A stretch of DNA of 50,761 nucleotides from Escherichia phage MatMar. Each line of letters begins with the position of its first letter. Positions within the stretch are counted from its first letter, which is position 1. The translations under genes were made by a program, and so were the position numbers. The notes under the pieces were generated by a model. The model worked only from the letters and a program-made list of their open reading frames with translations. It did no database searches and was not told the origin of the DNA. Below are positions 28,288 to 47,868 of this stretch, in pieces. The stretch lies in sequence record OR896829.1; one strand, given 5' to 3'.

Positions 28288-28330
28288 ATAGCACTTTTTG
28301 TTAAAAATAGCTTTTGAACGTGTGTATTAT
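28288..28330 (+). promoter_or_regulatory. AAATAGCAC module with TATTAT box 21 bp downstream, upstream of helicase gene
   Basis: atagcactttttgttaaaa N21 tattat acacgcc. Confidence 0.45.
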
Positions 28331-28362
28331 ACACGCCTAATGGCTTATTAAAAGAGACAGTT

Positions 28363-30402
28363 ATGATTCCTAATATTGAAAAGCAGATAGCCGCTTTAGG
28401 TGAAGAAACGATCCGAAAAATACAGGAGCGTTTCACGGTTGGCGATATTGTGCCATATCCTTACCAGGTTGTTGCATACACTGAGATCGCAAAGCGTATG
28501 CGAAATTATCAGCATCCATTCTTTATTAAAGCGTCAGTATCAGCAGGCAAAACATTGATGTTTGCAATGGTTGCGGCGCAATGCCGGAAAATGGGCTTGA
28601 AAATGATGGTATTGGCGCGACAGGCTGAAATTGTTGATCAGGATTCAGAGGAGATCACAAATCTCGGCGTGCCAAATTCCATTTATTGTGCCGGACTGAA
28701 AACCAAAAGCGCATACTTTCCTATTGTGGTTGGTTCTGAGGGAACTGTAGTTAACGGCCTGTTTAAGTCACTTGGCGACTATGTTCCGCACGTTATCGGG
28801 ATTGACGAGTGTCATCAGGTGGATTGGGAAGACCTTGCCGACGCGATAGAGAATGATGAATCACTCATTCAAATGACGACAAAAAAGGGCGAGAAAGTAA
28901 AGAATCCAGATTACGACATCACGAACGCCCATGAGTGTGATGAATTCCTGATTGGGGAAGATGGCTTGCCAATGGAAGGAACAGGCCGGACACAGTACAC
29001 CGTTATCATCATGGAAATGATGCGTCGTTGCAGGAAGGAATACGGTCACGAATTGCGTATATTTGGCATGACTGGATCGGAATTTCGCGGCGTGGTTCCA
29101 ATCCTGGTTGAAGATAAAAAACAGAAAGGATTTTGGCGAGAACAGGTTACTAACATAGATACCAACTATCTGATCAAATTCGGTTCGGTTGTGCCAACCA
29201 ATTTTGGCGACGTTGGCGATCTCGGTTATGACCTGTCAGAGTTCGAGGCATCCAGCGAGGACGGAGTTGCAGATTTTGACGCGAAAACGCTTCGCAAAAT
29301 GGAACAGAAGATCCATGAAGAAGCCACTATGACTAAGCGCATCATGGAGAAGGTGCACGAAATATGTAAAAACCGTAACGGCGTATTGGTGACATGTGCA
29401 GGTGAAAGACATTGTAAAGAGGCGGCGGCAGCGTTGCCTCCTGGCACGACTTACCGGATCATCACTGGCAAGACTGGCGACAATCAGCGTAAAGAATGGC
29501 TGAAAGAAGCATACGAGGGGAAAGTAAAATACATCTTCCAGGTGCAGGCGCTAACCACTGGCGTTAACGTGCCGTTTTGGGATACGTCAGTTATTCTGCG
29601 TAAGATTGGATCGCTAACTTTGTTGATTCAGCTTTTAGGTCGCGGTATGCGACTGCTTAAAAAGTGGCACAAAGAGCAGGGCTTTCATAAAGACGATCAT
29701 CTTGTTTTGGACTTTTCCGGCACGATGGACGAGTTAGGAGAGCTTTATTTCGATCCGATACTGGAGCAGGCGCAGCATCAGAAGAGATTCAAAAACGGAA
29801 AAGATCCGAAGCCTTGCCCTGTATGCAAGACGTTAAACAGCTATTACGCTCGACGTTGTATGCACGTAGACGAAAACGGAAACAGATGCGAATGGTTTTT
29901 CAAATACAAGATATGCGAGGATCGGATAGACCAGCGCACCAGAAAGGTTATCCATCACGGCTGTGGTACTAAGAATGATATTGCGGCCAGGGTGTGCAGG
30001 CATTGCGATGTGTCGCTTATTGACCCTAACGAAAAGTTAAGCGGTAAGCACTACACAAAAAACGACTGGTTCCAGGTAAAATCTTTCTCGGTTGACATGA
30101 CGAAAAATCAGAAAGGGATCATCTTCAATTATGAGCTTTCCGACGGCATCGACACATTCAGGGCGCGAGAGATATTTTTCCCTGAATCAGAAAGCCAGAT
30201 TTGCAGGGATAAATGGCGTAGAGTCGCGTTAAAGCATATACCGGATCGCCGTATTGCTGGCATGGTGGCAAGCTATCGCAATGCAAGAAAAATCATGCAA
30301 TATGCGAATCACATCATGCAGCCGTCGATGGTAACTCACCGCAAGACGAGTAAGGGCGAAGATAATCTATACAAGAAGGAGTTTAATTATGGCAATGACT
30401 GA
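28363..30402 (+). CDS. SF2 DNA helicase with C-terminal zinc ribbons
   Basis: 679 aa; Walker A SVSAGKT, DECH box (IGIDECHQ), Cys-x2-Cys pairs near C-terminus. Confidence 0.7.
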   Translation: MIPNIEKQIAALGEETIRKIQERFTVGDIVPYPYQVVAYTEIAKRMRNYQHPFFIKASVSAGKTLMFAMVAAQCRKMGLKMMVLARQAEIVDQDSEEITNLGVPNSIYCAGLKTKSAYFPIVVGSEGTVVNGLFKSLGDYVPHVIGIDECHQVDWEDLADAIENDESLIQMTTKKGEKVKNPDYDITNAHECDEFLIGEDGLPMEGTGRTQYTVIIMEMMRRCRKEYGHELRIFGMTGSEFRGVVPILVEDKKQKGFWREQVTNIDTNYLIKFGSVVPTNFGDVGDLGYDLSEFEASSEDGVADFDAKTLRKMEQKIHEEATMTKRIMEKVHEICKNRNGVLVTCAGERHCKEAAAALPPGTTYRIITGKTGDNQRKEWLKEAYEGKVKYIFQVQALTTGVNVPFWDTSVILRKIGSLTLLIQLLGRGMRLLKKWHKEQGFHKDDHLVLDFSGTMDELGELYFDPILEQAQHQKRFKNGKDPKPCPVCKTLNSYYARRCMHVDENGNRCEWFFKYKICEDRIDQRTRKVIHHGCGTKNDIAARVCRHCDVSLIDPNEKLSGKHYTKNDWFQVKSFSVDMTKNQKGIIFNYELSDGIDTFRAREIFFPESESQICRDKWRRVALKHIPDRRIAGMVASYRNARKIMQYANHIMQPSMVTHRKTSKGEDNLYKKEFNYGND

Positions 30403-30808
30403 TAAAGGTGACTATCTGGAGTTTTACGAAAGAGATCCAACAGATACACTAAAAGAAGAATCGCACCAGATAGGTGCGTTTCAATGGGTGACTTATGCTC
30501 ATCCTGAATTGCTGGCCTGGCATACGAAAAACGAAGGAGACAAGGGAATCGCCACTGCAATGATGGATCAGCAAGCCGGACTCGTTAAGGGTGTGAGTGA
30601 CTTCATCATCCTGATTGGATTAAAAGGCCGCTACCCGTTTGCGGCTATTGAAATGAAGCGCGTCAACAAGTCCGGCAAGGGGAAGGCTTCTCCGGTCAGC
30701 AAAGAGCAAAAAGCCTTCTTGCGCCGCGTGCGCGAGCTTGGCGGCTTCGCTGCCGTCACCTACGGTTACAAGCAATTCATGATCGCAGTTGATTACATGC
30801 TGAAATAG
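30389..30808 (+). CDS. VRR-NUC domain nuclease, putative
   Basis: 139 aa; GVSDFIIL ... AAIEMKR ... EQKAFL pattern of PD-(D/E)XK VRR-NUC proteins; overlaps helicase 3' end. Confidence 0.5.
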   Translation: MAMTDKGDYLEFYERDPTDTLKEESHQIGAFQWVTYAHPELLAWHTKNEGDKGIATAMMDQQAGLVKGVSDFIILIGLKGRYPFAAIEMKRVNKSGKGKASPVSKEQKAFLRRVRELGGFAAVTYGYKQFMIAVDYMLK

Positions 30809-30848
30809 CACTTTTTGTTAAAACAGGCGCGATGGATTGCGCCATAAT
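30803..30848 (+). promoter_or_regulatory. AAATAGCAC module: 22-bp box overlapping stop codon, GC hairpin spacer, CATAAT at N22
   Basis: aaatagcactttttgttaaaac aggcgcgatggattgcgc cataat. Confidence 0.5.
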
Positions 30849-30880
30849 CAAATAAACAAGGAAATCGCGAGGATATTAAC

Positions 30881-31582
30881 GTGAAGAAAGAAATTGAAAT
30901 CAGCTTTGAACAAATCGAACGAGAAACGTTTGTAGGTAATGCCCTAGCGACCGGAGGCCATTACCAGGCAGTTAAGTCAAATCAATATTTCAAAGTGACG
31001 GGCAACCGATATAACGGAAGCAATACGCCGGACGTTGTGCGCGATTTATGGTCTACACCATCAGAGCTTGTCGCATGGATGGAAAGCGAATATGGTGATT
31101 ATGACATCGACGCGGCAGCAAGCAAAGATAATGCTGTATGCGAAAAATTCTACAGCAAGGAAACGAATTGCTTAAAGCGTTGGTGGGGTAGTAATAAGCA
31201 CATCTGGCTTAATCCACCATACAGCAACATCACGCCATTCGTTAAGAAAGCGATTGAGCAGATGGAGCACAACAACCAGATCGACATGCTTTTACCATGC
31301 GACACATCAACAGGATGGTTTTATGAAGCGCAACAGCACGCGGCGGAAATAATCTGGATCACTGGAGAAGTTTACAAAGAGGATGGAACAGAATATTCAC
31401 GCACCGGACGCCTGGCGTTTACTTCCGCACTTACAGGTAAACCAGTACAGGGCAACAACAAAGGAAGCGTTATTTTCATCATGCGTGAACTGAAAGAAGG
31501 CGAGCATCAGAAAACGCGATACGTTAAAATCAGCGACATTTGCCCTTCCGTGGCAGAGCGTCGGGCAAGAAAGCGGAGTTAA
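30881..31582 (+). CDS. DNA N6-adenine methyltransferase (phage Dam-like)
   Basis: 233 aa, GTG start after GAGGA RBS; catalytic NPPY motif (WLNPPYSN). Confidence 0.65.
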   Translation: MKKEIEISFEQIERETFVGNALATGGHYQAVKSNQYFKVTGNRYNGSNTPDVVRDLWSTPSELVAWMESEYGDYDIDAAASKDNAVCEKFYSKETNCLKRWWGSNKHIWLNPPYSNITPFVKKAIEQMEHNNQIDMLLPCDTSTGWFYEAQQHAAEIIWITGEVYKEDGTEYSRTGRLAFTSALTGKPVQGNNKGSVIFIMRELKEGEHQKTRYVKISDICPSVAERRARKRS

Positions 31583-31586
31583 TATC

Positions 31587-31844
31587 ATGCAAAAAGAAAG
31601 AAGCGTTTATTTAAATGAGTGTGGCGAATGGTTGCTTTATCGCGCTATGGTTTGCGATGCGCTTGATAAAAACCCTAACGTGAAAAAGATGATTGATTGC
31701 GATCCGTGGGAATTTTCAAGCGCATTGGATATGAGCTTTGAGGAGACAAAAAAACTCCCGCTTGAAAAATGGCATGAACAGATCAGAAATGACATGCAAG
31801 AATTTGTCGATTCGTGGAATTTTCAGCACGGAATGATCCACTAA
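31587..31844 (+). CDS. hypothetical protein
   Basis: 85 aa ORF. Confidence 0.45.
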   Translation: MQKERSVYLNECGEWLLYRAMVCDALDKNPNVKKMIDCDPWEFSSALDMSFEETKKLPLEKWHEQIRNDMQEFVDSWNFQHGMIH

Positions 31845-31887
31845 CAGCACTTTTTGTTAAAACGCCCGGCATTTTGTCGGGCATAAT
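31842..31887 (+). promoter_or_regulatory. AAATAGCAC module (CAGCAC variant), hairpin spacer, CATAAT at N22
   Basis: taacagcactttttgttaaaac gcccggcattttgtcggg cataat. Confidence 0.5.
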
Positions 31888-31919
31888 TATTTCATCGAAA
31901 CGAAAATGAGGAAATAAAA

Positions 31920-32099
31920 ATGGTAGTATATAGCAAGAAAGCATTTGACCAGGCGCAACAAACCGCACGCGAGGCGGTAAAAGGTGGAACGAAAAACAAT
32001 ATGCAGCTTGATTGGGGCGCTGCAATGATTCTACTTCGCGTTGCATATGGTCACTACCCATTAGAATTTGCGGAGGCATATTATAAGCATGAAAGTTGA
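31920..32099 (+). CDS. hypothetical small protein (59 aa)
   Basis: ORF below the track threshold; GAGGA RBS 8 nt upstream; follows promoter-like module. Confidence 0.4.
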   Translation: MVVYSKKAFDQAQQTAREAVKGGTKNNMQLDWGAAMILLRVAYGHYPLEFAEAYYKHES

Positions 32100-32331: not shown

Positions 32332-32342
32332 GGATGGTTATC

Positions 32343-32420: not shown

Positions 32421-32431
32421 GAGAAAAAATC

Positions 32432-33550
32432 ATGAGTCAGAGCAAGATAACGGACGAGCAATTCACGCATGAGCGATTAAAGGGTAAGAGCTATCGTCAG
32501 ATTGCTGAGGAATACGGCCTTAACGTTCGTAGCGTCGAGCGCCGAGCGGCACGACTGGCAAAACAGGGTAAAATATCAACCATCGGAACTCCTGGTTTTG
32601 GTGTTCACGGTGAATCGGTCATGACCGACAAAGAAGGTAACGTGATCGTCAAATGGACAAAGACCAGTAAGGACAAAGAGCAACTGGAAGCGTTGATGCG
32701 TGCAGCTATGGACGCTTTTACCGAAGAATTGCCGCGAGTAGATCCGACACCGGAAGAAGCGAGCGAATACAGCGAAAGCCTTGCCCTTTACCCCGTTTTT
32801 GATATGCACCTGGGAGCTATGGCGCACAAACACGAATGCGGCGAGAATTGGGATACTTCCACGGCTGAGAAAGTAATGAATGACTTTTTCGATTATGCTG
32901 TGGCCTGTGCACCGTTCAGCGAGAAAGCAGTGCTACTGATTGGGGGTGACATGCTTCATAGTGACGGCCTGGAAGCAGTAACGCCTGCAAGCGGTCACGT
33001 CCTGGATCAAGATAGCCGATACGCAAAATTGGTTTACGTGGCAATCCGCGCCGTCCGTCGTGCCATTGAGTTGATGCTCAAAAAACACAAAGAAGTAGAG
33101 ATCCAGATAATTGAGGGAAACCATGACCAAAGCGGCATGATCTGGTTACGTGCAGCTATGGCGGCGGCATATGAAAAAGAGCCGCGCGTTTACGTTGATG
33201 TATCGCCGCGAGTGGTTCACCATACGCAGTACGGAAAAACCTTCCTTGCATATCATCACGGTCACACCGTCCGCAAGCCGGAAACATTGCTAATGATGTG
33301 CGCGGCAGACTGGCGGGAGGACTTCGGCAACTCAAAAACGATGTATGCGCACGTAGGGCATTTTCATCATCAGACTGTAACAGAAACATCGCTCGGCATT
33401 GTTGAAGTACATAGCACGATGGCAGCTAAAGACGCATACGCCGCGCGAGGCGGTTGGCGTTCCCGTCGCCGTGCTGCGGTTATCATTTACGACAAAGAAC
33501 ACGGCGAAATCGGACGATTTATGTTTTATCCTGAGATGGCAGAGAAATAA
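32432..33550 (+). CDS. HTH domain fused to calcineurin-like metallophosphoesterase
   Basis: 372 aa; N-terminal HTH (SYRQIAEEYGLNVRSVERRAARL); phosphoesterase motifs DMH, GDMLHSDG, GNHD, GHFHH in order. Confidence 0.5.
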   Translation: MSQSKITDEQFTHERLKGKSYRQIAEEYGLNVRSVERRAARLAKQGKISTIGTPGFGVHGESVMTDKEGNVIVKWTKTSKDKEQLEALMRAAMDAFTEELPRVDPTPEEASEYSESLALYPVFDMHLGAMAHKHECGENWDTSTAEKVMNDFFDYAVACAPFSEKAVLLIGGDMLHSDGLEAVTPASGHVLDQDSRYAKLVYVAIRAVRRAIELMLKKHKEVEIQIIEGNHDQSGMIWLRAAMAAAYEKEPRVYVDVSPRVVHHTQYGKTFLAYHHGHTVRKPETLLMMCAADWREDFGNSKTMYAHVGHFHHQTVTETSLGIVEVHSTMAAKDAYAARGGWRSRRRAAVIIYDKEHGEIGRFMFYPEMAEK

Positions 33551-33721: not shown

Positions 33722-33742
33722 CCATATAAAACATTAACTTAT

Positions 33743-34948: not shown

Positions 34949-35167
34949 TTAAGCATCAGGCCATTCGTGTGAATGATTTGTTAGCTTCTGGTTTTCCTGA
35001 AATTCAATATCATAATGACCAGCCATTACGCGTTTAGCCATTTCCTCAACATATCCGACAGCTTGCTCGTGAGTCCAAGAGTCGGCTGGGAATTTTGTAG
35101 GGATCTCAGTGGTAGTGCCGTTTTCATGTTTGATAATCAGCGCCACGGTAAAAAATTTGTTGCTCAT
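34949..35167 (-). CDS. hypothetical protein
   Basis: 72 aa from ATG at 35167 with GAGGA RBS; last gene of leftward operon. Confidence 0.45.
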   Translation of the reverse strand: MSNKFFTVALIIKHENGTTTEIPTKFPADSWTHEQAVGYVEEMAKRVMAGHYDIEFQENQKLTNHSHEWPDA

Positions 35168-35199: not shown

Positions 35200-35245
35200 A
35201 ATATACCCGACTATAAGCCGGGCGTTTTAACAAAAAGTGCTATTC
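35200..35245 (-). promoter_or_regulatory. AAATAGCAC module, hairpin spacer, TATATT at N22
   Basis: - strand: gaatagcactttttgttaaaac gcccggcttatagtcggg tatatt; box overlaps stop of upstream gene. Confidence 0.5.
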
Positions 35246-35437: not shown

Positions 35438-35756
35438 TCATTTCTCCTATCCGTGCCATATCCCTTATCCATTCATTTTGCATTCCCTCAAAGGTGTAAA
35501 ATTCGAATCCGAACGGCCTACGGGCAGATCCGTCAATGCACCAAAATCTACCTTCAACGCCATCCAGATAACCAGCGCCCATCATTCTTGCGCAAAACTC
35601 TTTCGATAGCATGGAAGCGAACATGCGCGGGGTGAATCCGGCCTGCTTCGCCAGGCGTTCACATTCTCTGTGCTGATAGATAAATTTTGCAATGTGCTGA
35701 CGAGTAAACCAGTCGTAAGACTCACACCATCTGTAGAGATCCAGAATGAACATCAT
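35361..35756 (-). CDS. hypothetical protein
   Basis: 131 aa; start ATG overlaps stop (TAATG) of upstream 527-aa gene. Confidence 0.45.
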   Translation of the reverse strand: MMFILDLYRWCESYDWFTRQHIAKFIYQHRECERLAKQAGFTPRMFASMLSKEFCARMMGAGYLDGVEGRFWCIDGSARRPFGFEFYTFEGMQNEWIRDMARIGEMSDDELFGAKSNRQDIEILRRKFNIT

Positions 35757-37339
35757 TACCCCATTAACACAGGATTCACAAAAATAACACCATTAATAAC
35801 ACAAACGTAGTTTTTTTGCTCAAGCATCGGAAGCAGTTGCGATTCTATGCGCTTCATCACGCCAGCTTGCCCCAGGAAAGGTTTTACCTTGCGTGCTGCC
35901 TCATACAAAGCGCGGACATTCAATACGCCTTTATTTGCCTTACCGTGGCGGGTGATTAACTCAATCAGTTTTGACATCTCGGCATCATCACCAGCATAGC
36001 CGGACGCGTTCGCCGCGCTGATATACGTTTTGCTCAATTCATGGAACATCAGCAAGGCTTCTTGCATCGTGTCAACGTCAATCTCTCTAGACTTTTGCGG
36101 GTATCCAGCAGGATTAAACCAATTGCGTATCACATGCAGAACGGCAGCAATGCGGATCACCTGCTTATCCATTTTACCCAGCGCACCGCGTAGCATCGTA
36201 TGCGAATACTTTCCGCCGTCGGCAAGATGCGGTTCCATATCCTGGCGTGCAATGTTCAGCACGCGCATTGCAGAACGGCTAACTTTCAGAGAAACGTTAA
36301 TTTCGCTCATAATGTTATGCACCAACTGAAAGTATTGCGCTTTCAATTCACCGTCTACTGGTTCGTAAGTTGAATCACCATTCTCATCCACAAATACACG
36401 CGTACCGATTAACGGCTGTTCGCGCACCAGTAGAAAACGCTCGCTTACACCGATGCCACGAGATCCTGCATCCATGATGCCATTAATGGTTTCATCCTGG
36501 GCGATAACACTCATACATCCAAGCGCAAAAAAACTCATGTTATTGTCTGCATTAGAACGGGCGATAGAAACATGGCCGTGATCCCATGCTTTTAACACAA
36601 GTTCGCTGTTAGTTTTGCGCTCGCTATTCGCGTAAGTCAGGCCAAGCAGACTGTTAATACTGGTTGCTTCATCAGAAATAACCGCGAAGTTTCCTTGTCT
36701 GTTATTTATCTTTGCTAATCCCTCTGGTGTGGTGTCGGAGACAGGGAAAACAACATCGCAAAGTTTGCTTAGTTTTTCTTCCAGATCTTCTTTTTCTTGA
36801 TATAGAATCTCCATATCTGCGCCGGAGCGTTCGCTTTTCATCTCCTTTAGTAGTCCGGCAAGTTTTGCCTGTATCTTTTTCCGTTCCTTCTTGCGTTGCT
36901 CGTTGATGCGCTCAACTTCTGCAACCATAGGCGCAATAGCCAGACTGTTAATCGCGGATTTACCTGCCGACGGAGGCTGGCTTGTCACAACGTAAAGCGC
37001 GGTCGGCTGATCGGTTCCGTGGTAGTCAACTGTGAATCGACCAAGCATAGCGGCAGAAATACATCCGATAAAGTGCATGTAGGCCGATGATTCAGGGAAT
37101 TGAACAGATCTCGCAAGATTGCGCGCCAGCTTACCAACTACATCAACATCATTCCCAAGTGAAATGACAGGGTAGCGGTCGTTAGCGCCGTTAATATCTT
37201 CCACCTGGCCCCAATAGCTTGAAGATTGGCGGTATCCGTTGGCCTGAATGGATACACGAACAGGGGAAATACCTTGAGATTCGGCGGTTTCAATGATTTG
37301 TTTCGGTGATAACTGACTTGTTTCAAATGAAAAATTCAT
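35756..37339 (-). CDS. large early protein with P-loop-like motif (putative NTPase)
   Basis: 527 aa; deviant Walker A PPSAGKS and Walker-B-like AVISDEAT separated by charged coiled-coil-like insert. Confidence 0.4.
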   Translation of the reverse strand: MNFSFETSQLSPKQIIETAESQGISPVRVSIQANGYRQSSSYWGQVEDINGANDRYPVISLGNDVDVVGKLARNLARSVQFPESSAYMHFIGCISAAMLGRFTVDYHGTDQPTALYVVTSQPPSAGKSAINSLAIAPMVAEVERINEQRKKERKKIQAKLAGLLKEMKSERSGADMEILYQEKEDLEEKLSKLCDVVFPVSDTTPEGLAKINNRQGNFAVISDEATSINSLLGLTYANSERKTNSELVLKAWDHGHVSIARSNADNNMSFFALGCMSVIAQDETINGIMDAGSRGIGVSERFLLVREQPLIGTRVFVDENGDSTYEPVDGELKAQYFQLVHNIMSEINVSLKVSRSAMRVLNIARQDMEPHLADGGKYSHTMLRGALGKMDKQVIRIAAVLHVIRNWFNPAGYPQKSREIDVDTMQEALLMFHELSKTYISAANASGYAGDDAEMSKLIELITRHGKANKGVLNVRALYEAARKVKPFLGQAGVMKRIESQLLPMLEQKNYVCVINGVIFVNPVLMG

Positions 37340-37366: not shown

Positions 37367-37413
37367 ATGTTACCGCACCAATACTACCCTTATTTGTCAA
37401 AAAGTGCTATTTG
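37367..37413 (-). promoter_or_regulatory. AAATAGCAC module (TTGACA variant), hairpin spacer, TAACAT at N22
   Basis: - strand: aaatagcactttttgacaa N22 taacat acaccgcacc. Confidence 0.45.
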
Positions 37414-37628
37414 ATCCGCTCGATTGCAACCAGTAGGCGATCCGGCTGGCGGTCGCTGTAGCATTCTCCGGTTACATCATCCTTAAAAGTGAAGTAAAGC
37501 GACTTGTGATATGAATACCCAATCAGCCAACCTTCCGCAGTTCTCTTTATTGGCCTGACAATATCGCCAGGCTTGAAAGTTGCAGTTGTGGCGTGAGTTA
37601 CTTTATATCGGTATTCACTGCGGATCAT
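37407..37628 (-). CDS. hypothetical protein
   Basis: 73 aa ORF. Confidence 0.45.
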   Translation of the reverse strand: MIRSEYRYKVTHATTATFKPGDIVRPIKRTAEGWLIGYSYHKSLYFTFKDDVTGECYSDRQPDRLLVAIERIK

Positions 37629-38011
37629 GAATATTTGGCCTCAAAAAGATAAGAGTAACCAGCAGAGAATCCGACCTCCTCGCGGTAGAGCGTCCATCGG
37701 TCGCCGTCCTCATCGAAGACGTAACCAGCAACTGATCCAAGAACGCGACCCTGTTCGACCTGGTAACGCTTTCCAGCTTTAAAACTTTTTTTGGTTGCCA
37801 TCCGGTGATCAACAAACGTACATAGAATCGTCTTTGCCTTGATAGTGCGGTATTCGTCCTGGTTGGCTGATTCCCACTTCGCGCCCTTAGCCAGCGCCTT
37901 AACCTGAAATTCCTCCATCTCGATCACGTCGTCGCTGCCAGCTACTTTTGTGTAAACAGTTTTATAGCGACCGTTCATCAATTTGTTGTCGGAATTGCGG
38001 ATAACTTTCAT
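37625..38011 (-). CDS. hypothetical protein
   Basis: 128 aa ORF. Confidence 0.45.
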   Translation of the reverse strand: MKVIRNSDNKLMNGRYKTVYTKVAGSDDVIEMEEFQVKALAKGAKWESANQDEYRTIKAKTILCTFVDHRMATKKSFKAGKRYQVEQGRVLGSVAGYVFDEDGDRWTLYREEVGFSAGYSYLFEAKYS

Positions 38012-38043: not shown

Positions 38044-38089
38044 ATTATGCCCGACTCAAGGTCGGGCGTTTTAACAAAAAGTGCTATTT
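38044..38089 (-). promoter_or_regulatory. AAATAGCAC module, hairpin spacer, CATAAT at N22
   Basis: - strand: aaatagcactttttgttaaaac gcccgaccttgagtcggg cataat. Confidence 0.5.
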
Positions 38090-39727: not shown

Positions 39728-39924
39728 TAGATGATCTCCATGTATGTTTCAAAGCCATTTAACTTGAACAGGCCGTTTTCACATTTGCGAACGTTCCAAG
39801 TTAGCCCTGAGTGGTACGCCTCCATATCATCAAGGTCAATGGTGATTTCAGCACCTTTCTTAAACAAACCTTTTTCGTGAGACTTGTCGCGCTTAACAAC
39901 TTTAACATCAACCTGATTTTCCAT
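39727..39924 (-). CDS. hypothetical protein
   Basis: 65 aa from ATG at 39924 with GAGGA RBS. Confidence 0.4.
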   Translation of the reverse strand: MENQVDVKVVKRDKSHEKGLFKKGAEITIDLDDMEAYHSGLTWNVRKCENGLFKLNGFETYMEII

Positions 39925-39957
39925 CTTTAAATCCTCGCATTCGTTGTCGATGCGTGT

Positions 39958-40003
39958 AATGTACAGGAACACGAGGATTGAGTTTTAACAAAAAGTGCTA
40001 TTT
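39958..40003 (-). promoter_or_regulatory. AAATAGCAC module, TACATT at N22
   Basis: - strand: taaatagcactttttgttaaaac N19 tacatt acacgcatcg. Confidence 0.5.
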
Positions 40004-40480: not shown

Positions 40481-40734
40481 TTTTTCTTCTCCTGCAATAA
40501 GCAAACATCATTGATAAAATCAGCGCGGCCTTTAATGTTGCTGATGTGGAACGTCTTTTCAGCGTACAGGCCATCACCTTCAATCACGATCATTACGCGA
40601 GTCGGTTTGTTCACGGGCGCACATGAAAAGAGTGGGCGCACCGGAAGAAATTTAGTAGTCACATCCAGGTTAGACCTGGCCGCCCTGCAAAATGCCTCAG
40701 CCAGATCTAAATCATTTTCGGTAATCACCGCCAT
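40468..40734 (-). CDS. hypothetical protein
   Basis: 88 aa ORF. Confidence 0.4.
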   Translation of the reverse strand: MAVITENDLDLAEAFCRAARSNLDVTTKFLPVRPLFSCAPVNKPTRVMIVIEGDGLYAEKTFHISNIKGRADFINDVCLLQEKKKCLM

Positions 40735-41006
40735 TACTTCTTGATCTCCTCACTGATAAATTTCAGCACCCGGCGCAAGAAAACTTCGTTGTTGATAGTC
40801 GCTGGCAATTCTTCTTTCACCTCTTGCGGCAGATAGATATTGCCGTGCCAGGTCAAGCAATCGTAGTTGATACGATAAGAGCAAAGCCACTCGCAATCGT
40901 TATCTGCTTCCCAAATGCAGAGTTGCAGAACATCGCCTAAGTTCTCAACAGTCAGATCCAGACCGTGACGCTTAGCGAAATTGAAAGTGGTTTTGCTGAT
41001 GTTCAT
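40734..41006 (-). CDS. hypothetical protein (first gene of leftward early operon)
   Basis: 90 aa; AGGAGA RBS. Confidence 0.45.
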   Translation of the reverse strand: MNISKTTFNFAKRHGLDLTVENLGDVLQLCIWEADNDCEWLCSYRINYDCLTWHGNIYLPQEVKEELPATINNEVFLRRVLKFISEEIKK

Positions 41007-41041: not shown

Positions 41042-41087
41042 AATGTACCCGATCAGAATGATTCGGTTTTAACAAAAAGTGCTATTC
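41042..41087 (-). promoter_or_regulatory. AAATAGCAC module, TACATT at N22, with no gene upstream of it
   Basis: - strand: atggaatagcactttttgttaaaac cgaatcattctgatcggg tacatt acacacatcg, then RBS and ATG 41006. Confidence 0.5.
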
Positions 41088-42202: not shown

Positions 42203-42203
42203 A

Positions 42204-42467
42204 ATGAATAAGGCATTAATGGCGGTTTTTATGGCAACAGCATTCCTGACCGGATGTAATGGTGATGGTGCTTACGTCGATGCACAAATGGCTAACCCTG
42301 CCGATACTTACAACGTCAGAAAACTATTTACAGTCGATGGTTGCGATGTGTACAGGTTCAGCGATAGCCGATACGTGTACTTTACCAACTGCCAGGGTAG
42401 CGCAAACTGGTCAACTAACGAAGGCAAGTCGGTTAGTCACTACCAAAACACAACAAACGTGAAATAG
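42204..42467 (+). CDS. lipoprotein (second in genome)
   Basis: 87 aa from ATG 42204; signal peptide with lipobox LTGC. Confidence 0.5.
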   Translation: MNKALMAVFMATAFLTGCNGDGAYVDAQMANPADTYNVRKLFTVDGCDVYRFSDSRYVYFTNCQGSANWSTNEGKSVSHYQNTTNVK

Positions 42468-42507
42468 CACTTTTTGTTAAAACTCAAAAACGATAACCAG
42501 GCATAAT
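42462..42507 (+). promoter_or_regulatory. AAATAGCAC module, CATAAT at N22
   Basis: aaatagcactttttgttaaaac tcaaaaacgataaccagg cataat acacacatag. Confidence 0.5.
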
Positions 42508-42709
42508 ACACACATAGACGGGCGGCAAGGATTGCTGCGGGAGAGGAGCGACGCAGGGGCTTGATCGAAGTGTCAGGATTCCCAACCGTGAGGCCAGAAC
42601 TATCACACTCGCCACCAGGCAGAACGCTAGATAGGTCACTGAACTGAGGCTACCGACGAAGTGAAGCCCGTCACCAAAGATTAAACGGTTATTTATGTGA
42701 AAGGGGTTA
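42508..42709 (+). ncRNA. candidate structured non-coding RNA or long 5' leader
   Basis: about 200 bp with no ORF having start codon and RBS, GC-rich compared with flanks, begins just after a promoter-like module; local hairpins and long-range complement gacgggc / gcccgtc. Confidence 0.25.
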
Positions 42710-42892
42710 ATGATGGATAAGATCATCAAAATGAGCGAAGTCAAACCGGGAATGATGGTTAAGTTTGCTGGCAAATATCGCCTGGTGCTGGATAACTGCC
42801 GCAAAGAGAACATTCTCACCATTCGAGTTAACGGCAAGGCGCAGCTATTCGCCCCCAACGCAGATATTAATGTTGAGGTCAGAATTAAGTAA
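42710..42892 (+). CDS. hypothetical protein
   Basis: 60 aa ORF. Confidence 0.4.
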   Translation: MMDKIIKMSEVKPGMMVKFAGKYRLVLDNCRKENILTIRVNGKAQLFAPNADINVEVRIK

Positions 42893-42960: not shown

Positions 42961-43854
42961 ATGTTAAAACTTGCTGACATTAAATTCCCGATCACCTTCG
43001 AATCTCGCGGCATTGGTCATTACATTTTTACTGATGAAAAAACATGCCATAAAGTTGATTTGCATAGCTACAAGCGTGCGCCATCAGACATGGAGATTGA
43101 ACACTTCATTGATGCACACAATACGCACTACAACGCCCTTAAAGACTATGGCTATGCAATGCCAGGATATACCAGCTTCCACTACAAGCCATATAAAGGC
43201 CAGGTGTTGCCAGTGCGCTCACCGGAACGCGCAGAGATTCCGATGGTCGATATGAAAACATGCGACTACAAAAAGCTGTGGTGCTTAAGTGTGGACAATA
43301 TCAAGTACCCGATCACGTTCTACACGGTTGGTAATTCAACGATTCGCTTCACATCGCGCGACAATGGCGTTTATAGCGATGGTCAGAAATCAGAGTTGAA
43401 AGTTGATTTCTTTGTTGATGGTCACAATAGATACAATCCACACAACGAAAAAGATAAGGTGTACTACGTGGAAGATATTACAAAACACTTATTTGGAGAA
43501 ACACCATTCGGCGGCGGGAAGACGTCAATTCATCAAATCATTGGCGAGGAGATCCACAAAGCGGCTGCCGAAATGAAAGCGCCTGGAGGATGGCGTATTG
43601 ACAAGAGCGCCTTTGCCTATCAAGAAATCGTAACGCAGGGCGCAATTGAAGATATGCCAGTTGCAGCCACGCTAAAAGGAGTCCGGCTTGATGATGGTAC
43701 ATGGTATGAATTAACGGCTACACCAAAGACGATCGAAATTCATGATGATGTTGTTATCCTCCTGCTTCACTATGGCGGCGCTAAAAACCGGACGGTTGCA
43801 GGTGAGATCAGCATCAAGCGCGGAACGATGGTTAAGTGGAAGGTGAAAGTATAA
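42961..43854 (+). CDS. hypothetical protein with internal two-fold repeat
   Basis: 297 aa from ATG 42961 with AGGAGA RBS; repeated motif KFPITFESRG / KYPITFYTVG. Confidence 0.45.
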   Translation: MLKLADIKFPITFESRGIGHYIFTDEKTCHKVDLHSYKRAPSDMEIEHFIDAHNTHYNALKDYGYAMPGYTSFHYKPYKGQVLPVRSPERAEIPMVDMKTCDYKKLWCLSVDNIKYPITFYTVGNSTIRFTSRDNGVYSDGQKSELKVDFFVDGHNRYNPHNEKDKVYYVEDITKHLFGETPFGGGKTSIHQIIGEEIHKAAAEMKAPGGWRIDKSAFAYQEIVTQGAIEDMPVAATLKGVRLDDGTWYELTATPKTIEIHDDVVILLLHYGGAKNRTVAGEISIKRGTMVKWKVKV

Positions 43855-43897
43855 ATAGCACGAATTGTTAAAACTCAATGGTGGGGCCAGGTATAAT
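43853..43897 (+). promoter_or_regulatory. AAATAGCAC module (GAATTG variant), TATAAT at N21
   Basis: aaatagcacgaattgttaaaac ... ggcc aggtataat ggcc. Confidence 0.5.
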
Positions 43898-43926
43898 GGC
43901 CTCACTTTCAACGAAGGAGATAAAAA

Positions 43927-44160
43927 ATGATTATTGAACAGCATTTTCTTTGCGTTAAGAGCAATCGACCATTCTTCACGCCTGGCAAGGTGTACCAGGG
44001 CAAGAAGGACACAAGAGATGGTCACTCTTATCATGTTCACTGCAACAACGGATACAAGTTTTACCTTAACGGCGAGAATGGAACTGAGATCGTTGCGTTT
44101 GAAAACGTAGTTGCAGAGTTCGAGCAGGTTACAGACGCGGAATTTGAGGAAGTGAAATAA
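43927..44160 (+). CDS. hypothetical protein
   Basis: 77 aa; AAGGAGA RBS. Confidence 0.45.
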   Translation: MIIEQHFLCVKSNRPFFTPGKVYQGKKDTRDGHSYHVHCNNGYKFYLNGENGTEIVAFENVVAEFEQVTDAEFEEVK

Positions 44161-44342
44161 TGGATGATTTTACTCGGCTTGTTCTCGGCTGGATTGTATT
44201 TCTTTTTGCGTGGCTTATCCACTGTGCGAGACATAAATTCAGACTGAGCTATGATAATTCATTCGTTATGACCTGCTTCAGTATTCCAGGATGGATCATT
44301 TTGCTTGTGGCTACTGCTGAATACATCCATAAAACATTTTAA
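44160..44342 (+). CDS. small membrane protein (two hydrophobic helices)
   Basis: 60 aa; LVLGWIVFLFAWLI and GWIILLVATA segments. Confidence 0.4.
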   Translation: MDDFTRLVLGWIVFLFAWLIHCARHKFRLSYDNSFVMTCFSIPGWIILLVATAEYIHKTF

Positions 44343-44352
44343 GGATTAATAT

Positions 44353-44892
44353 ATGAAAAAATACACTTTCGAACTATGGGGCAAGAAATACGAATTAATG
44401 ACCAGCAAGCCTATTGTTATCGTTGATCTGGATGGCACGCTATCGGACGGATCGCATCGTTTGCACTTGCTGCCAACCGAAAACTTGCACCTTACGGAAT
44501 CGTGGAGCGAATTTAACAGGGCAGCCGCCGGAGATTCACCGATTAAGAGCACGATTGCTGTTATCAATGGTTTGTGGGTATCTGGCTTTGCCGTCGTTAT
44601 TCTTACCGGACGCAGCGACGAGGTTCGCTATGAAACCTGCAAATGGTTGAATGAGAACGGCGTGAAGTTTGACGAAATCATCATGCGCCGCCAGGAGGAC
44701 AACCGAAAGGATACGGTTATTAAAGAAGAAGCCTTGCGCGCTATTGGATTGGGCAACATTGTTTGCGCCTTTGACGATTCTCCGAATGTGGTTAAGCACT
44801 TCCGAAGCCTGGGGATCACAACCTATCAGGTCACGGAATACGACAAGCCACACGCTCACCTGCAATCTCACGGCGTGGAGTGTTTAAAATGA
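44353..44892 (+). CDS. HAD-family phosphatase (polynucleotide 3'-phosphatase-like)
   Basis: 179 aa; HAD motif I VDLDGTLSDG near N-terminus. Confidence 0.5.
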   Translation: MKKYTFELWGKKYELMTSKPIVIVDLDGTLSDGSHRLHLLPTENLHLTESWSEFNRAAAGDSPIKSTIAVINGLWVSGFAVVILTGRSDEVRYETCKWLNENGVKFDEIIMRRQEDNRKDTVIKEEALRAIGLGNIVCAFDDSPNVVKHFRSLGITTYQVTEYDKPHAHLQSHGVECLK

Positions 44893-45050
44893 CTTGGTTG
44901 CTTTTAATCTTTGTCACAAGTTACAACTCCGCAGCTATTGAGTCGCAGGAGTTCCACGGCGAATCAAGATGCCAGGAAGCGCGAAAGCAAGTTGTTCTCA
45001 ACATGTCAGATAGTGGGAAGGATGTAACAGCGTTATGCGTTCGTAAATAG
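44889..45050 (+). CDS. hypothetical small protein (53 aa) with hydrophobic N-terminus
   Basis: ATGA overlap with upstream gene; stop TAG embedded in the 22-bp element; not in ORF track. Confidence 0.35.
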   Translation: MTWLLLIFVTSYNSAAIESQEFHGESRCQEARKQVVLNMSDSGKDVTALCVRK

Positions 45051-45090
45051 CACTTTTTGTTAAAGCATTCCATCGGGCTTGCTTTATAGT
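45045..45090 (+). promoter_or_regulatory. AAATAGCAC module, hairpin spacer, TATAGT at N22
   Basis: aaatagcactttttgttaaagc N20 tatagt. Confidence 0.45.
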
Positions 45091-45121
45091 AAGCCCATCA
45101 ACAACGAAAGAGGAAAGCATC

Positions 45122-45421
45122 ATGTTGGTTCGTAACGCGATTTATAAATTCACAAACGAGATGGGGGTTCACCTTTACCACGTAAACCATCAAGGCCACA
45201 TCTCAATCGCGATGTATCGCGACGCTCGCGGGAAGTGCAGACCTTCTCTGCGTGGCAGAATTTCACCTGCGTTCTTCATGTTTAGATGGTATGCAACGGA
45301 ACAAAGCAACCATAACCACTGGTATAAAGTATTGGTTGCAGGAGGCCGAATTGTTGTCAGCCACGTAGTCGATCCGCGCAAACTAACAAGTCGCCAGCTT
45401 CGCAAAATGGCGCGCAAGTGA
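45122..45421 (+). CDS. hypothetical protein
   Basis: 99 aa ORF with RBS. Confidence 0.45.
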   Translation: MLVRNAIYKFTNEMGVHLYHVNHQGHISIAMYRDARGKCRPSLRGRISPAFFMFRWYATEQSNHNHWYKVLVAGGRIVVSHVVDPRKLTSRQLRKMARK

Positions 45422-45433
45422 GAGAGGAATCCG

Positions 45434-45628
45434 ATGTATAAACTTCCATCAATGCATCCATTGCAGGAAAAAGCAGTTAACTACTTGCGCGACCTGGCAG
45501 ACAAGATCAAAAATGGCGAGGCATTCATAGAGCGAGTCGAGGCACTAAAAACCGTTGTTGATTTCGGTTGCTCAAGGGAAGAAATCAGCATTCATGTTGT
45601 TACAGCAGACGAGGAGACGAAGAAATGA
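45434..45628 (+). CDS. hypothetical protein
   Basis: 64 aa ORF. Confidence 0.4.
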   Translation: MYKLPSMHPLQEKAVNYLRDLADKIKNGEAFIERVEALKTVVDFGCSREEISIHVVTADEETKK

Positions 45629-45894
45629 CACGCAAAATTGAAATATTCCAGGCCATAGACAGAATCGACATGAGGGATTCACTATTCGCTATTGAGTCCA
45701 TTGATGGCGAAGACGTCGCCTACAACGTAGAGCTGGATGAATACGGATTCGACTGTGTGCGCAAAAAGTTTGCAGATAAAATTGCTATGCAAGGCCGATG
45801 CTTGCATAAAGACTCAAGCATAGAGCCTAGACGAAGCGACATGATTAATCCAAAACTTGTTGAGACTATTACTTTTGTGGAGAGCAGAAAATGA
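45625..45894 (+). CDS. hypothetical protein
   Basis: 89 aa from ATG 45625 with GAGGAGA RBS. Confidence 0.4.
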   Translation: MTRKIEIFQAIDRIDMRDSLFAIESIDGEDVAYNVELDEYGFDCVRKKFADKIAMQGRCLHKDSSIEPRRSDMINPKLVETITFVESRK

Positions 45895-46481
45895 AAAGAG
45901 ACATCATTATCCTGAATGGGCCACCTGGAGTGGGAAAGGACACCATTGCGGCATACCTTACCGGACACCGATACCCAGCAGTTAAGGCATCATTCAAACA
46001 GCCAATGTTCGATATTGCGTTCTCCATGCTTGGTGTGTACAGATACGATGAATTTATGGACTTGTACAACGACCGGGAACAGAAAGAAAAGCCTCAAGTG
46101 ATATTGCAGGGAAAATCACCGCGCCAGTTCATGATCTGGATTAGCGAGGAGGTAATGAAGCCAGCATTTGGGGAACAGTATTTCGGCTGGAGAATGGTTG
46201 AGCAGATCCACGAAATGTACCGCGACCTTGCAATTATCGTAACAGACGGCGGCTTTCCAGAAGAAATCAAGCCACTGATTAAAGCAGGTCACAAAGTGCA
46301 CATTTGCCGACTGCATCGCGAGGGGTACACGTTCGATGGCGACTCGCGAAACTATATCGACATGGGCGACTATCATCACCGCCTCAAGCATTACGATTTC
46401 ACGTTGCACGATGGCGAGCCAGAAAAGACGGCAGAGGAAATCATCGAAACCGTGCAGTGGTATTTCACAAAAATCAAATAG
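45891..46481 (+). CDS. P-loop kinase (nucleotide or polynucleotide kinase-like)
   Basis: 196 aa; Walker A GPPGVGKDT at residues 9-17. Confidence 0.45.
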   Translation: MKRDIIILNGPPGVGKDTIAAYLTGHRYPAVKASFKQPMFDIAFSMLGVYRYDEFMDLYNDREQKEKPQVILQGKSPRQFMIWISEEVMKPAFGEQYFGWRMVEQIHEMYRDLAIIVTDGGFPEEIKPLIKAGHKVHICRLHREGYTFDGDSRNYIDMGDYHHRLKHYDFTLHDGEPEKTAEEIIETVQWYFTKIK

Positions 46482-46521
46482 CACGAATTGCTAAACGCGG
46501 GGCGCAATGCTCCGCTATAAT
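46476..46521 (+). promoter_or_regulatory. AAATAGCAC module (GAATTG variant), TATAAT at N22
   Basis: aaatagcacgaattgctaaac gcggggcgcaatgctccgc tataat. Confidence 0.5.
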
Positions 46522-46552
46522 TTACCCAGTTCAGTAAACATAGGAATCAACA

Positions 46553-46954
46553 ATGTTAGAGCTAAGCAATATCCGCACCGGAACAAAATTTCGCGTAACC
46601 TGGGCAGACGAAAAATGCGGCCTTCGTCGTGGTGAGATTGTAACCGCCCAATCCCGTTACATCGGCAGACTGGAGAACTACAAGCGCCCACGCATTAAAT
46701 TCGGCTACATCATCACCGATAGCCTGGGATTCGACAATTACGTGATCAAGTCCAGCACCGGAATCATCGCAGACCTTAAGCGAATCCGTAATCATCGCGG
46801 CTGCCACGTAAAGACCATGAAAACGCCATTCCAGAATGCCAGATACGATGCGCGACGTATGCGCCGACTTGCTCGCAACGCCTGTAAGTTCAAGAAGACT
46901 GGCGATGATTTTTACAAAACCTACCAGGGGATCGCGCGCAATGCTGGCAAATAA
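46553..46954 (+). CDS. hypothetical basic protein
   Basis: 133 aa ORF. Confidence 0.45.
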   Translation: MLELSNIRTGTKFRVTWADEKCGLRRGEIVTAQSRYIGRLENYKRPRIKFGYIITDSLGFDNYVIKSSTGIIADLKRIRNHRGCHVKTMKTPFQNARYDARRMRRLARNACKFKKTGDDFYKTYQGIARNAGK

Positions 46955-47053
46955 AGTCGATTCGACTAATCCAAAGCCGCCATTTGATTTTCATAAGGCG
47001 ATGGCTGTGATACTATTCGTTCTGTTAATTTTTCACTGTTTGAGGTTTGGATT

Positions 47054-47305
47054 ATGGTTATCAATGCACTAAAGCGGCTTGTTCGTCCAGAATACCGGAT
47101 CGTGTGTTGCACTGAATGCAAGGTTTACTATCTGCAACGTCGTAGCACCTGGCGCGGTCGCTGGGAATATCTGACAGAGGATTCATTCGGCCTGTTCGCT
47201 ATGGAGTTTGCCCGATACAGTTCGGCGGCAATGTATGCGAAAACAGCGCACCGATTCCGCAAATCACGCCTTCGTTTGCTTGTTGTTAATAAGTGCGATG
47301 TATAG
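47054..47305 (+). CDS. hypothetical protein
   Basis: 83 aa; GAGGT RBS. Confidence 0.4.
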   Translation: MVINALKRLVRPEYRIVCCTECKVYYLQRRSTWRGRWEYLTEDSFGLFAMEFARYSSAAMYAKTAHRFRKSRLRLLVVNKCDV

Positions 47306-47313
47306 GATCACGA

Positions 47314-47493
47314 ATGAAGATAGCAATTATCACTTTTATTGCCCTTATCGCTGGTTGCTACCTTGCTTATAATTATAGCGGCATTGTTGAGTCAATCGGC
47401 GGGTTGATTATCTTCATGGCTGGCGGTTATGCTGGCTATTGTGACGGATTCGAAAACGGAAAGCGTTATGTGCTGACCGGAAAGAAAAAGTAA
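47314..47493 (+). CDS. small membrane or lipoprotein-like protein
   Basis: 59 aa from ATG 47314; hydrophobic N-terminus with LIAGC. Confidence 0.35.
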   Translation: MKIAIITFIALIAGCYLAYNYSGIVESIGGLIIFMAGGYAGYCDGFENGKRYVLTGKKK

Positions 47494-47531
47494 AACACGC
47501 GCCGCCGCAAGGTGGCGTTTTCTATAGGAGA

Positions 47532-47828
47532 ATGAAAATGGCAACTATGCGCAAAATGCTTATCAATGGCTTTGAAAGAGAAATTCGCCGTCGAGGCTGG
47601 GATGATTCTAAAAATTCACCTTACACTATCAATCGCGGAGAGTATAAATCAGTTCGACATTTTGCACGATGCCTGGCTGGATGCTACGACCTTGAGCACC
47701 CTTTCCCGTTCATGAACGAAACGCTAACCGAAATGATGGAAGAGGCCGCAACTCAAGATCGCCCACTGACGCAACATGATTTTGATGAGTTTGCGCACTG
47801 GGAAATCGAATGTGCGCTATATAAATAG
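47532..47828 (+). CDS. hypothetical protein
   Basis: 98 aa; alternative ATG at 47538 has better RBS spacing. Confidence 0.45.
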   Translation: MKMATMRKMLINGFEREIRRRGWDDSKNSPYTINRGEYKSVRHFARCLAGCYDLEHPFPFMNETLTEMMEEAATQDRPLTQHDFDEFAHWEIECALYK

Positions 47829-47868
47829 CACTTTTTGTTAAAACCAGCTTCGGCTGGTTTTGTATTAT
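47823..47868 (+). promoter_or_regulatory. AAATAGCAC module, hairpin spacer, TATTAT at N22
   Basis: aaatagcactttttgttaaaac cagcttcggctggttttg tattat atgcgcatcg. Confidence 0.5.

Follow-up and report, generated by a model that had tools for sequence, protein, structure and literature searches.

The DNA analysed here, 50,761 nucleotides of Escherichia phage MatMar (sequence record OR896829.1; hereafter the window), carries approximately 20 copies of a 22-bp box, AAATAGCACTTTTTGTTAAAAC, 16 of which run in the direction of the local genes. From position 3 to position 22 (ATAGCACnnnTTGnTAAAAC) the box is, by all appearances, a consensus marbox, the site of the host activators MarA, SoxS, Rob and RamA, and the early modules built on it are probably class II marbox promoters served by these stress activators of the host. 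The assignment proceeds from the sequence identity of the box with the marbox, the geometry of the modules, the conservation of a -10 hexamer and of a start site, and the absence of an AraC-family homologue among the phage's own open reading frames (ORFs).

The window begins with the large terminase gene and is collinear throughout with Escherichia phage WaterSpirit (Drexlerviridae, Tempevirinae, Warwickvirus), to which it is 98% identical over the 20 kb around the box modules; on sequence grounds it thus represents almost the entire genome of a virulent T1-like coliphage. The 22-mer was found 13 times at up to three mismatches, compared with no occurrence in 100 shuffled sequences, and 18 times at up to six mismatches. 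This bears out the original prediction, which had counted at least 18 copies and whose 14 listed coordinates were all correct within 2 nt. A marbox matrix derived independently of the phage (see below) added two co-oriented copies, 22476-22497(+) and 27798-27819(-), both belonging to the 'A' subgroup of boxes. The earlier statement that the copies always point along local transcription stands for the 16 co-oriented modules, where 73-81 nt separate the start of the box from the start codon, but not for the window as a whole, since the copies at 6182-6203(-) and 9931-9952(-) are antisense within the late (+) structural region. The copies at 1564(+) and 26718(+) are without a properly spaced -10 hexamer.

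Marboxes are asymmetric sites bound by monomeric activators of the AraC family with a pair of helix-turn-helix (HTH) motifs, namely MarA, SoxS and Rob in E. coli, joined by RamA in Klebsiella and Salmonella. GCAC is recognised by one HTH, and an AAA element one helical turn downstream by the other, within the consensus AYnGCACnnWnnRYYAAAYn. The likeness of the box to this consensus was afterwards tested against independent data, using a position weight matrix (PWM) made solely from 87 fifteen-mers of Salmonella chromatin immunoprecipitation sequencing (ChIP-seq) peaks for these four activators (Table 1 of PMC10268841). The top 18 matches of the matrix in the window were all phage boxes, scoring 15.5-17.2 bits, which corresponds to approximately the 90th percentile of the real ChIP sites (leave-one-out median 10.7, 90th percentile 15.9 and maximum 17.7 bits). 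Twenty-two sites in the window reached 14 bits or more, against 1.2 expected and a maximum of 6 in 200 simulations. By these ChIP-derived scores the box has the sequence of a marbox, with GCAC, an A/T-rich spacer and TG-n-[T/C]AAA. The phage cores GCACTTTTTGTTAAA and GCACGAATTGCTAAA are close to listed host ChIP sites, such as GCACATTTTGTTAAA (yhjB/yhjC), GCACTTTTTGCAAAA, GCACTGATTGTTAAA and GCACAAATTGCTAAA; of these, GCACATTTTGTTAAA, GCACTGATTGTTAAA and GCACAAATTGCTAAA are nearly the phage sequence. The TTGTTA within the box, previously taken for a -35-like hexamer, is in its sequence context the TG-n-T flank of the second recognition element of the marbox, not a displaced -35.

Downstream of the box, at 17-18 bp past its end, all 16 modules possess a hexamer with A at the second and T at the sixth position (background 0.197 per site; binomial P ~5e-12). 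It is the TATAAT-like hexamer seen earlier at 21-22 bp after TTGTTA, and we agree with the original prediction that such a gap excludes an ordinary -35/-10 pair. The best match to TTGACA at the -35 position averages 2.6 of 6 bases (three spacer lengths, 16 modules). We aligned 362 unique instances from T1, WaterSpirit and 80 IMG/VR loci encoding the Cro-like regulator of these phages (see below). Information peaks were formed by T-A-t-a-A-T at box positions 41-46 and by an A/C-rich leader with a Shine-Dalgarno sequence; a G at -14, three bases before the hexamer, and a C-A at positions 52-53, the predicted -1/+1, were conserved as well. Such a pattern is typical of sigma70 -10 promoters in which the extended -10 is partial and the start is pyrimidine/purine. 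With the predicted start placed 52 nt beyond the start of the box, the latter extends from -52 to -31.

Several other kinds of site were considered for the box and rejected. A displaced -35 role for TTGTTA was dismissed on the 21-22 bp gap and on the lack of any conserved hexamer 17 bp downstream of TTGTTA. A long-spacer promoter of the MerR type (19-20 bp between good -35 and -10 hexamers, with a common dyad operator in the spacer) does not agree with TTGTTA at 21-22 bp from the -10, with spacers that differ between modules, or with their lack of a common operator. The sigma54 promoter has TGGCAC-N5-TTGC, with GG and GC 10 bp apart; the box has TAGCAC-N3-TTG[T/C], that is, AG for GG and blocks 2 bp closer, and is also unlike sigma54 sites in being followed by a sigma70-type -10 at a fixed distance. 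A dimeric HTH operator, TAGCA-N5-TGYTA, was discarded on the strict orientation of the box, the better fit of an asymmetric marbox and the variable recognition helix of the phage regulator. The Lrp, IHF, Fis and DnaA consensus sequences, compared by eye, gave partial matches only.

The arrangement of the modules is that of known class II promoters of the Mar/Sox/Rob regulon. In these, a forward marbox overlaps the -35 and is clustered near -41, and a canonical -10 is present without a recognisable -35; class I marboxes are reversed and lie near -62 or -72 (PMC12052159; PMC10268841). The -35 matches of class II promoters average 1.9 (PMC10268841). In the cryo-electron microscopy structure of RamA at micF, the site lies at approximately -41, with 5'-CACT-N7-AAA on the top strand, and RamA touches sigma region 4 and one C-terminal domain of the polymerase alpha subunit (alpha-CTD) (PMC8811837). 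The micF promoter of E. coli K-12 consists of ACAGCACTGAATGTCAAAAC, 18 nt, TAGAAT and 7 nt to the annotated 5' end; the phage modules consist of ATAGCACTTTTTGTTAAAAC, 17-18 nt and the TATAAT-like hexamer, with polarity and gap as in micF. In 16/16 modules the box is in forward orientation (GCAC distal, AAA proximal to the -10 and the gene); with respect to the predicted start its centre is at approximately -41, overlapping the -35 position, and there is no recognisable -35 besides the sigma70 -10. The modules thus share with micF, lpxC P2, lpxL P1 and rfaY P1 the forward GCAC-N7-AAA near -41, the marbox in place of the -35 and the canonical sigma70 -10, the gap being 18 bp as at micF. In contrast to the host promoters, the phage sites are nearly invariant and top-scoring, occur in some 20 copies per 50 kb, carry the stop codon of the upstream gene and a terminator hairpin, and belong to a virulent phage instead of a stress regulon. 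The spacing is kept across the family: of the 439 unique sites that the ChIP matrix alone selected in 84 Drexlerviridae sources, 369 were separated from their best -10 by 17-19 bp, the gap being exactly 18 bp for 262.

The modules and further copies in the window are listed below; all transcription start sites (TSSs) are predicted from sequence, and hairpin stabilities are free energies (dG) in kcal/mol.

20958..20979, minus strand: box, PWM 17.2 bits; -10 TATAGT at 20940-20935; TSS ~20928; before gene 20634..20903.
22476..22497, plus strand: box of the 'A' subgroup (GCACAAATAGCTAAA), PWM 16.5 bits; -10 TATAAT at 22515-22520, inside a hairpin loop; TSS ~22527; before gene 22554..23207; not in the original prediction.
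27798..27819, minus strand: box of the 'A' subgroup, PWM 16.5 bits, overlapping the stop codon of the Cro-like regulator gene; -10 TATCAT at 27779-27774, within a terminator-like hairpin; TSS ~27767; before the primase gene; syntenic copy in T1 at 35976(-).
28286..28307, plus strand: box abutting the start of the regulator gene and divergent from it; -10 TATTAT at 28325-28330; TSS ~28337; before the helicase gene 28363..30402.
30803..30824, plus strand: box; -10 CATAAT at 30843-30848; TSS ~30855; spacer hairpin, dG -11.2; before the DNA methyltransferase gene 30881..31582.
31842..31863, plus strand: box; -10 CATAAT at 31882-31887; TSS 31894; spacer hairpin, dG -14.6; before gene 31920..32099.
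35224..35245, minus strand: box; -10 TATATT at 35205-35200; TSS 35193; hairpin, dG -19.8; start codon downstream at 35167.
37391..37412, minus strand: box, TTGACA variant, PWM 16.6 bits; -10 TAACAT at 37372-37367, in a hairpin loop; TSS ~37360; before the DNA helicase gene 35756..37339.
38068..38089, minus strand: box; -10 CATAAT at 38049-38044; TSS ~38037; before gene 37625..38011.
39982..40003, minus strand: box; -10 TACATT at 39963-39958; TSS 39951; without a hairpin; breakpoint of WaterSpirit homology at 40002.
41066..41087, minus strand: box at the head of a leftward early operon; -10 TACATT at 41047-41042; TSS 41035; before gene 40734..41006.
42462..42483, plus strand: box; -10 CATAAT at 42502-42507; TSS 42514; next ORF on the same strand ~195 nt on.
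43853..43874, plus strand: box of the GAA subgroup; -10 TATAAT at 43892-43897, in a hairpin loop; TSS 43904; before gene 43927..44160.
45045..45066, plus strand: box; -10 TATAGT at 45085-45090, in a hairpin loop; TSS 45097; before gene 45122..45421.
46476..46497, plus strand: box of the GAA subgroup (GCACGAATTGCTAAA), PWM 17.1 bits; -10 TATAAT at 46516-46521; TSS 46528; before gene 46553..46954.
47823..47844, plus strand: box, followed by a terminator-like hairpin CCAGC-TTCG-GCTGG; -10 TATTAT at 47863-47868; TSS 47875.
6182..6203, minus strand: antisense box, PWM 15.6 bits, flanked by a gene that ends at ~6157 and by that of the major head protein; weak -10 (TATTCA/ATTCAT) at a gap of 18-19 bp; TSS ~6150; syntenic antisense copy in T1 at 15067(-).
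9931..9952, minus strand: antisense box, GCAT variant, PWM 14.1 bits, between the major tail protein gene and the next gene; -10 TAGATT at a gap of 18 bp; TSS ~9900; syntenic antisense copy in T1 at 18831(-).
1564..1585, plus strand: box, PWM 17.1 bits, containing the stop codon of the large terminase gene and followed by a terminator; no -10 at class II distance.

The repeat itself is already known. In phage TLS, 18 intergenic direct repeats of 21 nt with the consensus aaATAGCACnnnTTGnTAAAA have been described (PMC11447400, 2024). They run along transcription approximately 76 nt upstream of start codons, fall into AAA, TTT and GAA subgroups, and were stated to be present in T1, Rtp and Rogue1 (PMC11447400). 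The MatMar box is the same repeat, with an identical consensus, the same co-orientation and start codons at +73 to +81. Approximately 15 copies are found in T1, including antisense copies at the same syntenic places of the late region as in MatMar. Conservation of the 22-mer and of its position in relatives, one of the checks proposed in the original prediction, is evident from the syntenic copies in T1 and from the -10 spacing kept family-wide. The TLS authors considered stoperators, enhancer-binding sites and UP elements, and listed the function of the repeat as an open question for T1-like phages (PMC11447400); their paper makes no mention of the marbox, of a fixed -10 or of class II geometry. 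Neither a link of T1-like phages to marboxes nor TSS mapping or transcriptomics of Drexlerviridae was found in the searchable literature and, as far as that literature shows, the marbox explanation is unpublished.

The UP-element idea bears on a reading in which RNA polymerase acts alone: the alpha-CTDs would touch the A/T tracts of the box in the manner of an UP element, a poor -35 would be provided by TTAAAA at a spacing of 19 bp, and recognition would depend mainly on the -10 with its G at -14. An UP-element role has been raised by the TLS authors (PMC11447400), and the box does hold AAA, TTTTT and AAAA tracts and is followed by the conserved G. Occupancy of sodA and micF by polymerase free of activator is believed to occur (PMC2787020), and T1-like phages grow well in unstressed laboratory cells. 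We nevertheless regard this explanation as very unlikely. The UP element consensus, a pattern of A/T-only tracts, spans -59 to -38, upstream of the -35 hexamer, whereas the box at -52 to -31 overlaps the -35 position. Conservation in the box is highest at G, C, A and C (2 bits each), which are not UP-like, and its tracts, compared by eye, are spaced differently from the UP consensus. Moreover, alpha-CTD contacts do not need a 20-bp motif so invariant.

In most copies the upstream ORF ends at the TAG of the box (positions 4-6) or at a TAA at -1/0, just as the original prediction had described. GC-rich hairpins with dG of -11 kcal/mol or below occur in 12/16 modules. Six have the hairpin between the box and the -10 (30803, 31842, 35224, 38068, 46476 and 47823), and six enclose the -10 in the hairpin loop (22476, 27798, 28286, 37391, 43853 and 45045), so that the frequent spacer hairpins noted earlier are confirmed and extended to a second type. 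In the loop-type modules, the transcript from the module's own promoter would be without the 5' arm and could not form the hairpin, while read-through transcripts would be able to fold. The GenBank record of T1 annotates the same spacer hairpins as terminators. As the box carries the stop and a hairpin lies between box and -10 or around the -10, each early cassette would possess its own terminator-promoter unit, in keeping with the earlier proposal. The copy at 41066, for which no upstream gene had been seen, indeed has no co-oriented ORF upstream.

The boxes could also be imagined as oriented roadblocks of the stoperator kind, or as decoys that titrate Mar/Sox/Rob, rather than as promoters. 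Like the stoperators of mycobacteriophage L5 (as cited in PMC11447400), they are short, asymmetric, spread over the genome, intergenic, oriented along transcription and often overlap stop codons. Some 20 marboxes of top affinity per genome, multiplied by replication, could sequester the activators; the copies at 1564 and 26718 lack a -10, and two others run antisense within the late region. L5 stoperators, however, bind a temperate phage repressor, block elongation and have no fixed relation to a -10, and the phages considered here are virulent and without an identified repressor system. A fixed distance of 17-18 bp to the -10 in 16/16 modules, and the family-wide spacing in 84% of 439 sites, along with a conserved start dinucleotide and leader, are requirements of a promoter and not of a roadblock. 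Of the explanations weighed here, we rate this one the least probable.

Among phage promoters, the nearest in design are the middle and late promoters of Mu (activated by Mor and C) and the middle promoters of T4 (MotA, AsiA), which keep the -10, have no -35 and place an activator over or next to the -35 region; Mor and C bind a dyad at approximately -43.5, and the MotA box is at -30. The activators of Mu and T4 are phage-encoded and read other sequences, whereas the MatMar modules carry a site of a host family and no phage counterpart was found. The promoter-early stem-loop (PeSL) cassettes of T4-type phages are likewise repeated promoter and hairpin units by small early genes; in MatMar, the modules fall on borders of gene replacement between relatives. 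PeSLs, however, are ordinary sigma70 early promoters with a -35, while the MatMar modules are of the marbox type and include the stop codon of the upstream gene.

Homology to WaterSpirit breaks at the modules, at window positions 39921-40002, 43853-43925 and 45071-45127. Two islands of 73 and 57 bp, 97-100% identical to WaterSpirit, are promoter-module sequence amid unrelated genes: the 73-bp island is the entire module at 43853, and the 57-bp island (45071-45127) covers the hairpin with the -10 region and runs past the predicted TSS into the beginning of the next gene, with the box at 45045-45066 outside it. By analogy with the PeSLs of T4-type phages, the modules look like junctions of cassette exchange. 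From +52 to +78 relative to the box start, most modules have leaders with a common A/C-rich motif (A-TCGAAACGAA...GAGGA) that reaches to the start codon and is kept in phages Motto and Vc1 too; the unit of ~78 bp as a whole, beyond the box alone, seems to be copied as one piece.

As to the protein that reads the box, searches with MarA and SoxS (phmmer/hmmsearch) found no AraC-family protein among 917 six-frame ORFs of the phage (best E-value 0.31), and a phage-encoded MarA-like protein was thereby discarded. The queries were checked against PDB entries 1BL0 and 7W5W and detected Rob and RamA in PDB at E <1e-28. The sole recognisable regulator gene of the phage has the following features:

27801..28277, minus strand: protein with a single HTH of the Cro/YdaS type (Pfam/PHROGs) and a basic N-terminal arm.

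Its AlphaFold (AF2) model has a predicted local distance difference test score (pLDDT) of 86, and Foldseek places it closest to all-alpha Cro proteins. In a comparison of 38 members of the family, its invariant residues lie in the basic N-terminal arm and the recognition helix varies, while the box stays constant. Residues 14-34 of the regulator (DKRxxNGNNGTRRGKDKKxRK), rather than the HTH, are its most conserved part, with five invariant residues and a low-confidence structure. In Pfam scans of 11 early proteins this Cro/YdaS-type HTH was the only one detected, the other ten having no DNA-binding domain. Since no MarA/SoxS-like ORF was found in the phage, the sole regulator is Cro-like and the other early proteins have no Pfam DNA-binding domain, the most economical reader would be Rob, MarA or SoxS of the host, or RamA in Klebsiella. 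This departs from the original prediction, which had favoured a phage-specific signal needing a phage factor or unusual polymerase contacts; for a box that matches the host marbox in sequence, orientation and spacing, a phage factor is not required as an explanation. Of the candidate HTH proteins it had put forward, the product of 27801..28277 is the single-HTH, Cro-like protein whose recognition helix varies under a constant box, and for the product of 32432..33550 the record of WaterSpirit, 98% identical, gives a DNA repair exonuclease.

A phage protein could nonetheless read the box and activate or repress there, be it the Cro-like regulator with its basic N-terminal arm and HTH, or a small orphan early protein whose specificity has converged on the marbox. 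The regulator gene is present in 848 phage records, nearly all of them T1-like. It is divergent from the box promoter and has a reverse-complement box in its own leader, which is an autoregulatory layout, and its N-terminal motif DKRxxNGNNGxxRG is as invariant as the box. Most early ORFs are without a known domain, the boxes are more uniform than host marboxes, and single knockouts of rob, marA and soxS were not flagged in a host screen with phage LL5 (see below). We still hold a phage reader to be unlikely. A single-HTH, all-alpha Cro fold normally binds symmetric operators as a dimer, whereas the box is asymmetric and strictly oriented, and residues of the recognition helix differ widely among phages with the same box. 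An activator that has to be synthesised beforehand could not fire nearly all early promoters at time zero, and the re-annotation of TLS holds only 3 sigma70-like intergenic promoters (PMC11447400). With a phage reader, it would be mere chance that the box agrees with the marbox in sequence, in polarity and in the 18-bp gap.

At 28278-28362, the plus-strand -10 of the helicase module, TATTAT, shares bases with a perfect minus-strand TATAAT facing the Cro-like regulator gene, as read from the sequence. The overlapping promoters would compete for polymerase, and the reverse-complement box lies in the leader of the regulator.

Returning to host activators as readers of the box, the modules would work as follows. 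Rob, MarA or SoxS would bind the box and activate; the choice among them in unstressed cells and the precise start positions are likewise matters we infer. The marbox would occupy the place of the -35 hexamer and, as at the class II promoter micF, the bound activator would contact sigma70 region 4 and an alpha-CTD and so recruit RNA polymerase. The polymerase would use the -10 hexamer alone, often aided by the G at -14. Initiation would fall on the conserved A that follows the start of the box by 52 nt, and the resulting leader, approximately 25 nt long, would have a strong Shine-Dalgarno sequence. The box would also supply the stop codon of the upstream gene, and the variable 18-bp spacer, or a hairpin enclosing the -10, would terminate upstream transcripts, each early cassette being a self-contained unit of stop, terminator and promoter.

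Several points weigh against this mechanism. T1-like phages multiply very rapidly in ordinary broth, yet an unstressed host contains little MarA and SoxS, and its Rob, though constitutive, is mostly sequestered in the absence of inducers (PMC2787020; PMC10268841). Basal levels, activation triggered by infection or activator-independent firing must therefore be assumed. A screen of the Keio single knockouts with the T1-like phage LL5 recovered tolC, lipopolysaccharide genes, secB and ppiB, and did not recover rob, marA or soxS (PMC7229145); redundancy of Rob, MarA and SoxS could hide the requirement in single knockouts. The uniformity of the boxes in the phage goes far beyond that of the degenerate host marboxes, even at positions where the host consensus accepts any base. 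The embedded TAG stop codon explains part of this uniformity, and a more stringent reader than Mar/Sox/Rob is a possible cause. No TSS map, binding assay or reporter for any T1-like phage was found in the searchable literature. Finally, Motto (a 'Pseudomonas' phage) and Vc1 (a 'Vibrio' phage), with 45% GC, carry the same boxes, which would argue against strict dependence if these hosts are genuine and lack proteins of the Mar/Sox/Rob type. Considered as a control with non-enteric hosts, the two were not informative, having the same boxes, a GC content of ~45% and doubtful hosts. Approximately 20 'Campylobacter phage' records, one 'Pseudomonas' and one 'Vibrio' record are ordinary T1-like genomes; one of the Campylobacter phage records is ~84% identical to MatMar, and the host labels look doubtful.

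A few further observations concern individual copies. The module at 42462 is followed by approximately 195 nt (42514-42710) without an ORF on the same strand, and the first 78 nt past the predicted start at 42514 are 89-92% conserved in Motto and one IMG/VR relative. A non-coding RNA at this place was considered and dropped: nothing in Rfam matched, there was no tRNA, and the fold was not unusual (z = +1.4). The antisense modules at 6182-6203(-) and 9931-9952(-) adjoin late terminators, at the same syntenic places in T1; the antisense RNA that they would give would run into the 3' ends of two genes, the one preceding the major head gene and that of the major tail protein. In the late operon, where the copy at 1564-1585(+) is co-oriented too, a co-oriented marbox match of 13.5 bits at 16110-16131(+) abuts the start codon of the large tail protein gene and is without a -10 at class II distance.

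More tentatively, it is quite possible that the Drexlerviridae, an entire family of virulent phages of enterobacteria, have wired nearly all of their early transcription to the host activators Mar/Sox/Rob (RamA) by way of some 20 consensus class II marboxes per genome. If so, a classic phage family would rely on activators of a host stress regulon and not on strong sigma70 promoters, a polymerase or activators of its own; we know of no comparable case of a virulent phage, and none was found in the searched literature. Stress of the host, bile salts, salicylate, redox drugs or multidrug-resistance mutations of the mar/ram type would then raise early expression of the phage, and replicating phage DNA would soak up the activators and blunt the efflux and stress response of the host. 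The phage itself may free Rob from sequestration, or trigger SoxRS or MarRA, on infection. The modules of ~78 bp, in which stop, terminator, promoter and leader are combined, are compact and portable and are potential cassettes for engineering. Phage growth would be tied to the very regulators that underlie clinical multidrug resistance through marR, soxR and ramR mutations, which would bear on phage-antibiotic synergy and on the choice of Drexlerviridae (e.g., Klebsiella weberviruses) as therapeutic phages against strains with overexpressed efflux pumps.

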